The position numbers were made by a program. From a virus (taxonomy: Duplodnaviria > Heunggongvirae > Uroviricota > Caudoviricetes), in the IMG/VR virus record IMGVR_UViG_2529293240_000009, positions 1 to 25,133 of that record: a stretch of 25,133 bases of DNA, one strand, 5' to 3'. Position 1 is the stretch's first letter; each line of letters begins with the position of its first letter. Below, in pieces: positions 3,001 through 9,000 of this stretch.

Positions 3001-6000
3001 GGTTCCCGCACGCTGGCTGAACTGGAATCTGAAATTCTGCAACTGCGTAAGGCGTTAAATGAAGCTCGCCTTGAGCGAGATATATTAAAAAAAGCAACAG
3101 CGTATTTTGCACAGGAGTCGCTGAAAAATACGCGTTAATCGAACAATGGCGACAACAATTTCCCATTGAAGCGATGTGTCAGGTATTTGGTGTATCCAGG
3201 AGCGGTTATTACAACTGGGTACAGCATGAACCCTCAGACAGAAAACAAAGTGATGAGCGGCTAAAACTGGAGATTAAGGTGGCACATATCCGCACTCGCG
3301 AAACATATGGAACCCGGCGGCTCCAGACGGAGCTGGCAGAGAATGGCATCATCGTTGGTCGTGACCGACTGGCACGTCTTCGTAAGGAGCTAAGGCTACG
3401 CTGTAAGCAGAAACGCAAGTTCAGAGCGACTACGAACCCGAACCACAATCTGCCAGTTGCGCCAAATCTGCTGAACCAGACGTTCGCTCCTACAGCACCA
3501 AATCAGGTCTGGGTGGCGGACCTGACGTATGTTGCCACACAGGAAGGATGGTTGTACCTCGCTGGCATCAAAGATGTTATACGTGCGAAATTGTCGGCTA
3601 CGCCATGGGAGAGCGCATGACAAAAGAGCTGACAGGTAAAGCCCTGTTATGGCGCTCAGGAGCCAGCGCCCACCTGCCGGGCTAATCCACCACTCTGATC
3701 GAGGTTCACAGTACTGCGCATACGATTACCGGGTCATACAGGAGCAGTCTGGTACTGAAAACATCAATGTCGCGTAAAGGTAACTGTTACGACAACGCTC
3801 CGATGGAAAGCTTCTGGGGAACGCTGAAAAATGAGAGCCTGAGCCACTATCGTTTTAATAACCGGGATGAAGCCATCTCAGTAATACGGGAATACATTGA
3901 GATTTTCTACAATCGTCAGCGTCGTCACTCTCGTCTGGGGAATATCTCCCCGGCAGCCTTCAGGGAAAAATATCATCAGATGGCTGCTTAAAAAAGAACA
4001 AATGGTAGTGTCCGCTATTGCCAGTACACCTCAACTTTCAGCATTCCGTTATAGAGCAGCTTTCTGGTCAGCCACTGTTGGCCACGCCCGGTGATTTTTG
4101 TGGTGAACGATATCTGTATTCCGTGATTTGTGTTGACTGCTGTTTCTTTCACTGTGAAATAGCCGCGATCCATATATTCCTGCATTGGCACATTGCGCCG
4201 GGAACCTGAAGCAATAAGGATTTTGTGATCGCGCATCCACGCAAACAGTTTGTTTGGACCAATTCCAACAACCTTTGCAAAGTTTCCAATCAAAATTCCG
4301 CTGGCCTCGCTAACGCGATCGGCAAACTCAACTTTAGGTGCTGCGAGAGCAAGCTGTTTCTCCAGTTCAGCCTTCTGGTCTTCAAGGTCGGCCGCAAGGC
4401 GCAATGCCTCAGAAAAGGTTTGTGGGATTTTCGCGGTTGCCCCTTCAAGCTCTCGCCAACGGTCAACAAGACGAGCGGTGAATTCCGGCGACAACTGGGC
4501 AACGACAATAATGCTGTCGCGCTTACCTTGTTCGCCTTCGAAGACGTAATGCTCGTACTGAACATTGAACCCTAAGTTATTGATTCTTTCGGAAACCTCA
4601 AATTGAGGATGCCGGATAACACCATTTTTAGCCAGCGTTTCGATGGTACGTTTCACATTGTCATGACGCTTACCCACCAACTCAGCGATTTCAATGCTGG
4701 TCATTTTAATGGCGTTGCTATTTATCAGCTCGTTCATTGTCATGTCCTCTCATATTGAAAATTCAGCAATAAAAAACCCAGCCGAAGCTGGGTCGTTGCG
4801 TTGGCAATCTGTCAGTAGTGATGTAGTGAAGGAGGTAATTCTTTGTTCTTAAGTCTTACCCATGCAGAAAGATTCGTTGGTCCGTCTGGCTCATTAATAT
4901 CAACATCTCGTGTGTGATTGATTAAAACGTCTCTCGCCATTCCGATAACATACGAGAACTCATGACCGTAGTCGTGGCATCTGCCGGAATAGTTAGACTG
5001 AATTTGTCTTAGCGCCGGATACAGTTCGCGGAATAATGCCTGTGAGCGGTTGGCATAATCCCACAACCATACCAGACTGTTTGCATCTTTTGCAGAAAGC
5101 TCGCTGGTTTTCTTCTCGTGATGACCTGCGCTTTTCGAAGTCTGGCTGAAATAGCAGTCTTCCAGTTTTTCGAACACGTCCCATGCCTGATCGGTTTCGA
5201 GCATCTTCGCGTGACGAGCTGCGCCGCGTTCTGTCCAGAGGATGAGGGAGCGGGTTTTTGGAGAAATTTTCACCTCATTTTGCGACTCGTTTAAAACTAG
5301 TCGCAAATTTTTGAGCTCATCACCAACAGCTTTAAAGAAGTGTTTTCCCTCAATAAATCGAGATTTATTTTCATGGTGATTCTGCTGTATACGGATTGCT
5401 TCTGTTCCGTAAAGGCGGGCGAGTAACTCAGTTGTGATTACAGGAATCTGGTTATAAGTGACAGGGGAAAGGTTTTTGACAGCAACTTGAACAGTCATAA
5501 CGACCTCGCGTTTCGATAATTTTTACCTCACCACCTTCAGGTTCCAATCATCGGGTGGCGAACTGTGCAGGGTTGGAACTACCGGTCGAAACATCCGGCG
5601 CACCTTTCGGTGCCCCCACACAGCCCGCCATAAATCGCGAATGTGACTGTGCTTAGCGCATAAAAAACCGCCAGCGCGGTATGCACCGTTTCGATATCCG
5701 GGGTTCCAATCCCGACGCCAGATTTTGCTGGCGCGTGAGGAATATAGCCCCGGATATGTGTTGTCGTCAACTACAGGCCTTGAATGCATATAACAATTTT
5801 GTTATGTTGATACCTATGAACTACACTATCGAATACTACAGTGAAGATGTAAGGCTGGAAGTCGATCGGCTTCCATTGAGTATGCGTGCCCGATACCAAC
5901 ATCTCGTTGAACGTATGAAGATATATGGCAGCAATCTCGGAGAACCTCACACCAGCGCCTTTGGTGACGGACTTTTCGAACTCAGAATTAAAGGCAACGA

Positions 6001-9000
6001 TGGGATCGCGCGTGTTTTTTACTGCACTCTGACAGGGAAACGCATCATCATGCTGCATAGTTTTGTAAAGAAAACGCAGAAAACACCGCCAGCCGAACGC
6101 AAGAAAGCTGAAACCAGAATGAAGGAGGTTAAGCATGACTGGTAAACGCACTCTCCCCACCATGACACACGACGAAATGGCAGCCAAATGGATGGAAGAC
6201 CCGGCTTTTAAAGCAGAATACGACGCTATCGCTGACGAATTCGCACTGCTTGATGAAATGCTGGCAGCACGCAAAGAAGCTGGCTTAACTCAGGCTGAAG
6301 TTGCCGAGCGAATGGGAACAAAAGCGACCGCGATCACCAGAATGGAAAGTAATCTCGCATCAGGTATCAGCGGCCCATCATTTGCCACCCTAAAAAAATT
6401 CGCCCGCGCTACTGGAAAAAAACTCCAGATCCGCTTCGTTTAACCACACCGCGCCGTCATTCTGGCGGCGCACCGGATAAATAGTCATTTCCTCGCACGA
6501 TGTCTTAGCCACCGGATATCCCACAGGTGAGCCGTGTAGTTGAAGGTTTTTACGTCAGATTCTTTTGGGATTGGCTTGCGTTTATTTCTGGAGCGTTTCG
6601 TTGGAAGGTATTTGCAGTTTTCACAGATTATGTCGGTAATACTTCGTCGCTGTCGCCTCATGCCGCCCTCCCTGTTCGTTGTGACCATTCATACTCTCGC
6701 CGGGAGTTATCACTCCACCGCACGTTGCGCTCTGAGCCGAACCAGAACATGATTTCGATAAGCTCAGTCATGCTGGCCTTTCGCATTTTGCTGGTACGCA
6801 CGCCAAGCATGACAACGCCACCGCCGATACCAGGCGCACTTCGTTGCTCCAGTTTTTTGGTCTTAAGCCACAGGGCAGTGAACAGGTCTTTCCAGTCTTC
6901 CGGCGCCAGCCGTTGACCATGCCATAGCACCTGACGCGAAACATCGTTCAGCATCGGCCACATACGGTCATTCTGCGCTTTGCTGCGTTTGGGTTCTCTA
7001 ACGTGGACTTCGTGGGGTGACTTGTCGTCGATGGGTAGTGAGAGAATGGCGTCTATGGCGTTATTTCTGATTGCTTCGTTGCGAAGCAGGAATAATTGCT
7101 TCACTTGCCCTCCTGCTCTTCTCCTTGCGCTTATCCGCGTAATACCGGTTTAATTCGTCAGACATCTTCTCTCCGATAAGCGGCCATGACTCAAACCTCG
7201 CATTCGCAAAATTCTCAAGCCATTTCGCAAAATCATCCAATTTATCTGCTAACCAATAAACAAAATATGACAGCCATACTGCTGAAGCCAAAAAGATACG
7301 ATGCGGATTAAGGATGAAAATAAGCGATATTTTCATTCCTCGTGATACTTTGCTCATGCTCACTCCTTCACTTTAAATCCAGACTCCGGATAATTCTGTC
7401 ACACTGAAAATCATTATCGATTTTAACCAACCGGCGAAGAACGCGGTCACGCGGATAGCTCCGTGGCTTAGGGGCGTTTTTCTGTCTCTCGCCAGTCGGA
7501 AGTCTGGAAGCAGACCAGTACCGCTTTGCACGACCAATGTTCTCCTGAAAGTCGGCGCGGACAAGCTCAGTCAACGAACTCATTTCTTAAAACCTCCTCA
7601 AACGTATTCTGACGCATTTTTCATTCTCGCTGCTATATAAATACCTTGTACGCGTTTACCTCGCTACAGAGCGATTGTGATGCCTTAAAAGCGATTTATT
7701 GAAGTGATATTTGCTTAATCGAAATTCTTTTCTTTGATTCCTGCGGCCCTGATGGCTTTCATTACTGCAATTACCGTTTTGTCACGCCCATCCTCATAAC
7801 CCATCGCATAAGCACCTTCTTCACCATCTTTCCAAAAGTCGTCATTCGATTCGGGCCAGTCGATATCCAGTTCAATAGCAGAGCGCGATGCCTGCCATAT
7901 CACCCAGGCAAACTCTTTTAATTCATCGTCTCCTGTGAACTGGTTTTTGTCTTTTGACCACCAGTTTTCAAACTGTCGGTAGCTATCGTTCACTTCCCTC
8001 TCCCCCAAATAAAAAGGCCTGCGATTACCAGCAGGCCTGTTACAAGCTCAGTGATGTAGATGGTCATCAGAATCCTCCTTTCTTCTTGGACTGCGGTTCC
8101 TCGCGTTCACGTCGGCGCATTTCAGCAGACTGTTGGTCTGTGTCATAAATAGCGCCATTTGCCTGAATGCAATACACCGTGCCGGTATTGCCATGACGAT
8201 TGAGACGAAGGATTAGTTCGGTTTCACCAGGTGGAACACTGTCATCAAAAGCACCTTCACGATGGATCCCCACCCAATAATCGCAATCCTGTTCAATCTG
8301 CCCTGTATCTCGTGAGTCACTTGGTAATGGGCGTTTATTGGTTCGGCTTTCCAGTGCGCGGTTAAGCTGCGTCAGAAGCACAACAACGCAATCAAGCTCT
8401 TTGGCAAGGTTCTTCAGTCCTTTGGTGATCATGCCGTAGGCAAGGTTCTTCAGTCCTTTGGTGATCATGCCGTAGGCAAGGTCGTTGCGATCGGCCTTTT
8501 CAGCGGTCATTAGTGTCAGGTCATCGACCAGAATCATGCCAACACATCCTTTTTCTCGCTTGATTCGACGGCTTTCGCTGACGATTTGAGCCAGAAATAA
8601 TCCCGGCGTGTCGTCGATGTAAAGCAGGTCGATTTCACTCAAGCGATTGGCTGTTTCGATCGCCCTGTTGAAGTCACCATCGTAATCACCCTGATAGCCG
8701 TCATCGGCGTCATTTGTCGCCGGAAGGTAAAAAATATTCGGGTTAACACCAGACTTCTGCCCTACCAGTTTTTCCAGTATCTGATCACCTGGCATTTCAA
8801 GGCTGAACATCAGAGCGGGCTTTTTCTCATGCACTGCGCAGTTGATTGCCATCTGGCTGTATAGCGTCGTTTTCCCCATCTTAGGGCGAGCGCCAATGAC
8901 AAACAGAGAGCCTTTCACCAGACCTTTCGGTGACAGCATCCTGTCCAGCGATGGGATCCCTGTGCTCATTCCTCGTTGTTCGCCTGACGGGTCAAAACGC

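Follow-up and report, generated by a model that had tools for sequence, protein, structure and literature searches.

The toxin-antitoxin locus

IMG/VR virus record IMGVR_UViG_2529293240_000009 (Caudoviricetes) was analyzed over positions 1 to 25,133, a stretch of 25,133 nucleotides (nt) that we refer to throughout as the window. At positions 5816-6443 its plus strand encodes two overlapping genes, the first for a small Gp49-type protein that resembles HigB toxins and the second for a HigA-like protein with an XRE-type helix-turn-helix (HTH). The pair runs against its surroundings, as every Pfam-supported phage gene between 4015 and 10416 lies on the minus strand. We conclude that the two genes very probably form a two-gene type II toxin-antitoxin (TA) operon, Gp49 (HigB-like)/XRE-HTH (HigA-like), that is carried as a ~0.7-kb moron in a defective lambdoid prophage. 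Support in silico comes from family membership, fold, residue conservation, operon architecture, the geometry of the operator and -10 hexamer, the mobility of the cassette, and purifying selection. The original prediction, a model's reading of the DNA by itself, had described two overlapping opposite-strand genes with an 11-nt overlap, an AAGGAGG site, a 317-bp gap on one side, and a hairpin on the other, and each of these lies where it had been placed. The features of the operon and its cassette are as follows.

5816-6145, plus strand: toxin gene (ATG at 5816, TAA at 6143-6145), 109 amino acids (aa); Gp49-type, HigB-like, RelE/ParE superfamily
6135-6443, plus strand: antitoxin gene (ATG at 6135, TAA at 6441-6443), 102 aa; XRE-type HTH at the C terminus, aa 44-98
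6122-6128, plus strand: antitoxin Shine-Dalgarno (SD) sequence AAGGAGG, within the 3' end of the toxin gene and 6 nt before the antitoxin ATG
5780-5808, plus strand: predicted sigma-70 promoter of the pair, with -35 TTGAAT at 5780-5785, a 17-nt spacer, and -10 TATGTT at 5803-5808
5790-5805, no strand assigned: predicted operator ATAACAATTTTGTTAT, a perfect palindrome that reaches from the promoter spacer into the -10 hexamer
6451-6471, no strand assigned: GC stem-loop GCGCCGTCA-TTC-TGGCGGCGC at the right end of the cassette
5757-6472, plus strand: cassette inserted relative to Phi24B-type phages, 716 bp, between 7-bp direct repeats CCGGATA at 5750-5756 and 6473-6479

The toxin and antitoxin proteins

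The only Pfam match of the toxin at an E value of 0.1 or below is Gp49 (PF05973; E = 7.4e-26, 90.5 bits against a cut-off of 23.9, covering profile positions 3-90 of 90), and the protein also matches PHROG 2523 (E = 2.6e-45). Among sequences in the Protein Data Bank (PDB) its best match is 6af3_A, the HigB of Streptococcus pneumoniae (E = 1.5e-5 with the single sequence and 7.8e-9 with a profile), followed by HigB1 of Mycobacterium tuberculosis (7AWK/7NBU; ~2e-3), and these two toxins (6AF3/6AF4 and 7AWK/7NBU) are its only significant solved relatives by sequence. The canonical HigB family of the Rts1 or Proteus vulgaris type was not among the Pfam matches, and the sole match in NCBIfam, TIGR02683 (upstrm_HI1419), scored 21.2 bits, far under its cut-off of 62.85. 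The profile search therefore bears out the original assignment of the first gene to the RelE/ParE superfamily as a Gp49-like toxin, whereas its label "HigB" is valid by convention and in the loose Gp49 sense only. RefSeq names the exact protein [quoted passage not shown], it also appears as "prophage protein gp49", and it is present on several hundred Shigella and Escherichia coli contigs. Several records mis-call the start of the toxin, giving products of 76-87 aa or of 129 aa. We also considered a 154-aa open reading frame (ORF) that begins at 5681 as the toxin gene and rejected it: the Pfam domain begins only at its residue 61, the homologs begin MNYTI, and the extension overlies the conserved promoter and operator as well as the opposite-strand isrK RNA described below.

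An AlphaFold2 model of the toxin, built with 26 homologs as input, has a predicted local distance difference test (pLDDT) score of 89.9 and a predicted template modeling (pTM) score of 0.83. Its topology is beta-alpha-alpha-beta4 followed by a long C-terminal helix (strands at residues 4-7, 46-50, 53-60, 63-73, and 76-84; helices at 10-17, 21-37, and 92-108), and it contains the antiparallel beta-sheet packed on N-terminal helices by which the RelE/ParE fold is recognized. A long C-terminal helix is a trait of Gp49-type toxins (PMC9098466). A Foldseek search of the PDB with this model ranked pneumococcal HigB first (6af3/6af4; template modeling [TM] score 0.74-0.78) and M. tuberculosis HigB1 next (7nbu/7awk, of which 7nbu is ribosome bound; E = 4e-5, TM score 0.72), with YafQ, RelE, HigB2, YoeB, and ParE at lower ranks. 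The match to a RelE/ParE fold, whose absence would have spoken against the original prediction, is thus present.

The M. tuberculosis toxin, also known as HigB-TAC and part of a toxin-antitoxin-chaperone (TAC) system, cleaves mRNA on the ribosome, and alanine at R68, R77, K95, K99, or K58 abolishes its toxicity (PMC9098466). In a profile alignment the window toxin places E55, R57, R66, F83, K85, Q88, and K89 opposite E66, R68, R77, F93, K95, Q98, and K99 of HigB-TAC, all in its proposed catalytic pocket, and six of these seven pocket residues (Q88 is the exception) are invariant among the 26 homologs, which show 61-94% identity. The pocket residues K58 and N73 of HigB-TAC have no clear counterpart in the window toxin. 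Homology thus gives good support to the prediction that the toxin is a ribosome-dependent mRNA endonuclease. Both it and the antitoxin keep every invariant residue of their families, and for that reason neither gene appears to be decaying. As a separate observation, toxin residues 49-99 match the C-terminal 50 residues of the PADLOC model for NsnC (PDLC03886; E = 8e-10), which suggests that NsnC, a known or candidate defense protein, ends in a Gp49-like domain.

The second protein matches HTH_3 (E = 3.4e-11) and HTH_31 (E = 1.5e-7) in Pfam, and its best PDB sequence match is 6af3_B (E = 1e-3), the HigA chain that partners the toxin's own best match, in agreement with the XRE-type antitoxin that had been proposed. 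It keeps 19 of 19 invariant family positions, and its N-terminal ~40 aa are conserved and predicted to bind the toxin. The AlphaFold2 model of the antitoxin is all-helical with a pLDDT of 67.6, a low confidence that would be expected if the N terminus folds only on the toxin, and Foldseek with this model returned generic XRE, HipB, and C-protein HTH matches and nothing specific to HigA. The protein ends 4 residues past the HTH region and has no C-terminal chaperone-addiction extension. Its stop codon is followed by the hairpin and then by the convergent ninE, with no third co-oriented ORF and no gene for a SecB-like chaperone. The 3' end of the antitoxin gene (6375-6447, 73 bp) also matches ~40 records of Shiga toxin (Stx) phages of the Stx2a and Stx1a types at 88-89% identity, near their 5.8 kb, and this match may come from what is left of a cassette or from a related HTH gene.

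Distribution of the family and selection on the pair

More than 2,800 homologs of the toxin are detectable, and at least 578 species-representative genomes contain it, most of them from Beta- and Gammaproteobacteria and some from Nitrospirae and Desulfovibrionaceae. We examined the genomic setting in a species-level sample of 80 loci (L014-L093), of which 77 to 79 entered some of the counts given here. A toxin-first pair with an overlapping HTH gene was found at 75 of the 80 loci (overlap of 4-17 nt), and on this basis the association of toxin and antitoxin goes far beyond chance. The same count upholds the toxin-first order, which the original prediction had taken as the hallmark of HigBA. 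An overlap of 11 nt, as in the window, recurs in Methylospira, Glaciimonas, and Salmonella. The surroundings of the pair across the 80 species are mainly housekeeping genes and not phages or defense islands, as is the case for other promiscuous type II modules; upstream neighbors belong to diverse housekeeping families (n = 137, with Phage_pRha accounting for 2).

Comparison with five enteric relatives gave ratios of nonsynonymous to synonymous substitution rates (dN/dS) of 0.02-0.16 for both genes, which indicates that both are under purifying selection. Three enteric phage cassettes (L013, L008, and L011, the last of which is phage PhiR5_2) differ from the window in a way that is uneven across the module: the N-terminal half of the toxin (helices 1-2) falls into two diverged alleles (dN ~0.23), and the antitoxins diverge much less (dN 0.06-0.09). 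This divergence of the toxin N-terminal half suggests recombination within the module or diversifying toxin-antitoxin specificity.

Predicted promoter, operator, and translation signals

The arrangement TTGnnn-17-TATGTT is kept in all enteric cassettes, though the DNA farther upstream differs, and 65 of 77 species loci have a -10-like TAnnnT hexamer whose end lies 6-7 nt ahead of the start codon of the toxin. Because both position and hexamers are conserved across enteric cassettes and species loci, we judge the promoter of the pair to be real despite its weakness. Its -10 hexamer ends 7 nt before the toxin ATG, which leads us to predict that the toxin message is leaderless, with transcription probably starting at or next to the toxin ATG. 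Literature searches returned nothing specific on a leaderless higB.

The predicted operator belongs to a pattern, TAACA-N4-TGTTA, that 66 of 79 species-level loci contain; at 59 of these it lies upstream of the start codon at a distance of 10-11 nt. The palindrome is kept in all enteric phage cassettes despite their divergent flanks, and the window holds no second perfect copy. Its position and conservation are consistent with binding by the antitoxin HTH, a dimer of which would repress the operon by occupying the -10 hexamer.

The two genes differ sharply in their translation signals. The toxin start in the window lacks an SD sequence, and the energies of the duplex with the anti-SD sequence are +0.6 kcal/mol for the toxin and -12.4 kcal/mol for the antitoxin; across the species loci the means are +0.5 and -8.9 kcal/mol, and an SD core precedes the toxin at 1 of 77 loci and the antitoxin at 76 of 77. 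We infer that a leaderless toxin followed by an antitoxin with a strong SD sequence is a conserved design of the family, and one that would keep the antitoxin in excess in a toxin-first operon, since the toxin would be translated from a leaderless start without an SD sequence and the antitoxin from a strong one.

A mobile cassette with occupied and empty sites

Positions 4034-5756 together with 6488-6671 of the window are collinear with contiguous DNA of the Stx phage Phi24B, which has 23 bp where the window has 5757-6487. The same empty site is found in many Stx and lambdoid phages. At the site of insertion Phi24B has a single CCGAATA, and in the window a third copy of CCGGATA lies at 6512-6518, in the coding end of NinE; the repeat could be a target duplication, insertion microhomology, or chance.

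The cassette also occurs in other company. Phage POCJ13 matches window positions 5753-6471 at 92% identity with different flanks, and the cassette, taken here from ~5753 through the hairpin that ends at 6471, sits between other flanks in no fewer than three combinations, represented by POCJ13 and the 75/02 Stx phage, by PhiR5_2 and E. coli G1/2, and by TUM9812 and Salmonella, with 80-92% identity to the POCJ13, G1/2, TUM9812, and Salmonella copies. It is not common: only five phage records carry it, corresponding to three phages (POCJ13, 75/02 Stx, and PhiR5_2), as do 31 of 5426 complete E. coli genomes, and it is absent from the E. coli/Shigella species-representative genome. Because phages with an empty site exist, because the same cassette sits in different flanks, and because its own promoter/operator and hairpin travel along with it, the proposal that the pair is an independently acquired moron is supported, and the pair reads as a self-contained cassette of ~0.7 kb. 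We looked for compositional evidence of foreign origin as well and found none, with a GC content of 48.2% in the cassette and the phage block alike.

All enteric phage-borne copies retain the hairpin of the right end (-16.6 kcal/mol, z = -2.8 against shuffled sequences) downstream of the antitoxin stop codon, irrespective of the sequence that follows it. We rejected it as a canonical intrinsic terminator, as there is a U-tract on neither strand and a terminator scan did not call it. It may stabilize the 3' end or keep the convergent transcripts of ninE and the antitoxin gene apart.

Copies close to that of the window are already present in public records. E. coli VL40 has the same order of Ant, isrK/C4, TA pair, and NinE at ~97% identity, and the PhiR5_2 record annotates its cassette copy as HigB/HigA. 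VL40 (L004) additionally encodes, at 5112-5776 near its immunity region, a different pair of a canonical "HigB family toxin" and an HTH protein; we sought a counterpart of this second pair in the window and it is absent. In PhiR5_2 (L011, PV340546) the toxin start at 3039-3041 is ATA in place of ATG, with the remaining ORF intact, and the "HigB" listed in the record is cut down to 76 aa. This toxin may be naturally attenuated.

The isrK/C4 leader and the prophage remnant

The other features of the window place the cassette in its context.

439-2671, minus strand: tail-fiber remnants (Pfam)
2771-4034, no strand assigned: insertion sequence (IS) IS600
4015-4743, minus strand: Rha/KilAC antirepressor (Pfam)
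4812-5498, minus strand: Ant, an ORF6N/P22_AR_C antirepressor (Pfam)
5635-5551, minus strand: C4 antisense RNA (Rfam, above gathering threshold)
5734-5661, minus strand: isrK RNA (Rfam, above gathering threshold)
5747-5695, minus strand: c4-a1b1 RNA (Rfam, above gathering threshold)
5770-5741, minus strand: isrK/C4 promoter TTGACG-18-TATATT, a good match in the promoter scan
6485-6688, minus strand: NinE (Pfam)
6658-7104, minus strand: NinB (Pfam)
8067-9554, minus strand: DnaB-like helicase (Pfam)
10048-10416, minus strand: O fragment (Pfam)
~10416-11846, no strand assigned: IS3-family element
12044-13470, no strand assigned: IS4, inside the integrase gene, which it splits
23723-25133, no strand assigned: second IS4 copy, inside yfaL

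Exactly 317 bp separate the minus-strand start of Ant at 5498 from the toxin ATG at 5816. This interval is the leader of the antirepressor at 5498-4812, a minus-strand isrK/C4/a1b1 RNA switch of the immI/IsrK type, and not part of the pair. The structured region and the GC hairpin that the original prediction had seen flanking the pair are therefore both present, but the first of them is a feature of the antirepressor. The way in which an isrK-type leader controls translation of the downstream antirepressor has been worked out in Gifsy-1 (PMC4825925). The promoter of this leader and that of the pair stand back to back, their -35 hexamers 9 bp apart. Antirepressor neighbors of the Ant or Rha type are found in the window, G1/2, PhiR5_2, TUM9812, Salmonella, Methylospira, and Glaciimonas, which gave rise to the idea of a functional link between the family and antirepressor genes (Ant/Rha/P22_AR). 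As a family-wide link we rejected it, because only 2 of the 137 upstream neighbors are Phage_pRha.

The prophage itself, at 1-14110, is a defective, noninducible, IS-riddled lambdoid remnant, and the cassette sits in its nin region. The window contains no cI, cro, N, Q, lysis, head, or packaging genes. The early-region setting of the pair is as predicted, but what surrounds it is a remnant and not an intact prophage. Such an IS load is typical of Shigella, and the contigs that carry the exact toxin make a Shigella or a closely related E. coli the probable host. Apart from the pair, the plus-strand ORFs of the prophage part that have Pfam support belong to an IS fragment, to the IS4 transposase, and to a fragment of the integrase. 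To the right of the prophage, in the chromosomal segment DUF1175-yfaA-gyrA-ubiG-yfaL, ubiG is on the plus strand too.

Comparison with characterized HigBA systems

HigBA of S. pneumoniae (6AF3/6AF4) is the best solved relative of both window proteins at once and shares with them the toxin-first order, a Gp49-type toxin with a long C-terminal helix, and an XRE-HTH antitoxin. Its toxin is only ~19-20% identical to that of the window in a structural alignment and is longer, with a chain of 141 aa, and the system differs in host phylum and genomic setting; the operators are not comparable. M. tuberculosis HigB1/HigB-TAC (Rv1955; 7AWK, 7NBU) has the same Gp49-type fold as the window toxin and provides a mechanistic model for cleavage of mRNA in the A site. 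A SecB-like chaperone makes up the third part of that system, and its antitoxin bears a chaperone-addiction tail, whereas the window pair has neither the SecB-like third gene nor the chaperone-addiction element that mark a TAC system.

A precedent for regulation is HigBA2 of an Acinetobacter baumannii plasmid, in which the Gp49-domain HigB2 is a ribonuclease (RNase); the operon has one promoter, upstream of both genes, which HigA2 represses while the toxin acts as co-repressor (PMC5906591). It resembles the window pair in its toxin-first operon, and its regulation is the scheme that we propose here, but it is plasmid borne and distant in sequence, and neither a leaderless toxin nor TAACA-N4-TGTTA is described for it. 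The canonical HigBA of Rts1 and P. vulgaris and the HigBA2 of Vibrio cholerae likewise put the toxin first and combine a ribosome-dependent mRNase of the RelE superfamily with an XRE-HTH antitoxin; V. cholerae HigB2 is among the fold matches of the window toxin (5JA8/5JAA/8A0X) at a TM score of ~0.55, weaker than the Gp49 group.

Proposed mechanism and function

We hypothesize that the weak sigma-70 promoter at 5780-5808 would produce one bicistronic mRNA starting at or beside the toxin ATG, from which the leaderless toxin, without an SD sequence, would be poorly translated and the antitoxin, from its internal AAGGAGG, efficiently, so that the antitoxin would be in excess even though it is encoded second. 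The N-terminal segment of the antitoxin would bind and block the toxin, and a dimer of its C-terminal HTH on the palindrome overlapping the -10 hexamer would repress the operon. Should the supply of antitoxin fail, whether because the DNA is lost, transcription is shut off, or the protein is proteolyzed, free toxin would enter the ribosomal A site and cleave mRNA in the manner of M. tuberculosis HigB1, leading to growth arrest.

Several points weigh against this reading or parts of it. The promoter matches the consensus at 8 of 12 positions and was not called by a simple promoter scan, and the low confidence of the antitoxin model, together with its generic XRE fold matches, weakens the case for toxin binding by the N terminus. 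HigB2 and HigB3 of M. tuberculosis, which are also Gp49 proteins, showed no toxicity and little inhibition of translation (PMC9098466), and the ATA start in PhiR5_2 indicates that a phage tolerates or even prefers a crippled toxin; because of these two cases toxicity is not to be assumed for the window pair. Literature searches found no experiment on this module or its close relatives and no functional study of the Shigella, E. coli, or phage copies. As for its benefit to the host or the prophage, PADLOC gave only the partial match to the NsnC C terminus, with no defense-system family matching the whole toxin, and a role in prophage maintenance has little to act on here, because immunity, lysis, and packaging genes are absent and the integrase is interrupted.

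The same parts could have been selected for phage defense or superinfection exclusion, with another phage, on infecting, shutting off host transcription or degrading the antitoxin and so releasing the toxin, which would abort the infection and protect the clonal population and the resident prophage, or alternatively for addiction, with post-segregational killing penalizing loss of the prophage or segment and so explaining the persistence of the pair in an eroding, IS-riddled prophage. These roles are plausible, and equally so, and we put either forward tentatively. Temperate phages carry the cassette along as a moron on the opposite strand with a promoter of its own, toxins of the HigB type are known to act in defense, as when lambda infection is aborted by HigBAC of E. 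coli (bioRxiv 10.1101/2024.02.24.581848), the toxin core resembles the C terminus of NsnC at the E value of 8e-10 given above, and the pair is intact in a dead prophage, all of which would suit a defense function. That function is nevertheless doubtful, as the pair has no sensor component, no SecB-like chaperone gene, and no chaperone-addiction tail on its antitoxin, no known defense system is matched over its full length by PADLOC, and the family across the 80 species is mostly found among housekeeping genes.

Addiction, which we hold to be a possibility of similarly modest standing, is in keeping with the architecture of a classical type II pair, and the pair has stayed intact while the prophage lost its immunity region, lysis, and head genes and gained IS600, IS3-family, and IS4 elements; the occurrence of the exact toxin on hundreds of Shigella and E. 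coli contigs would fit as well. The rarity of the cassette among complete E. coli genomes (31/5426) and the abundance of empty-site phages imply, however, that lysogens do not need it for their stability, and persistence in a remnant may equally be neutral hitchhiking.

It is improbable that the Gp49 protein no longer kills and that the main role of the HTH protein is that of a transcription factor, which might influence the isrK/antirepressor promoter: the nontoxic M. tuberculosis HigB2 and HigB3 of the same family, the ATA start in PhiR5_2, and the two divergent back-to-back promoters would fit such a nontoxic or decayed pair, but all aligned catalytic-pocket and invariant residues are retained, purifying selection on the toxin is strong (dN/dS 0.02-0.16), the operator lies over the pair's own -10 hexamer with no second one in the window, and 2 Rha-type genes in 137 upstream neighbors make for no general antirepressor linkage.

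Implications

A two-gene TA operon of this kind is an ordinary finding, a member of the very common and already annotated Gp49/HigB-HigA family. One further idea, to which we give little credence, is that the family-wide layout of leaderless toxin, strong-SD antitoxin, and operator over the -10 hexamer makes the toxin:antitoxin ratio respond to the state of translation initiation and that the state of the pair is coupled to antirepressor expression, the latter suggested by the isrK/C4 antirepressor promoter that lies back to back with that of the pair at a distance of 9 bp between -35 hexamers. If this were true, conditions that favor leaderless messages or damage SD-dependent initiation, such as ribosome takeover by a phage, stress, or some antibiotics, would tip the balance toward the toxin.

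The DNA beside the pair that had been regarded as noncoding is now assigned to the isrK/C4 antirepressor switch. With its clean boundaries and the natural availability of phages in which the site is empty or the cassette sits elsewhere, the cassette is a convenient test case for what a phage-borne two-gene HigBA does, be it exclusion, stabilization, or nothing. For the family as a whole, the conserved operator together with a leaderless toxin and a strong-SD antitoxin would offer a simple, testable explanation of how antitoxin excess is achieved in toxin-first operons.

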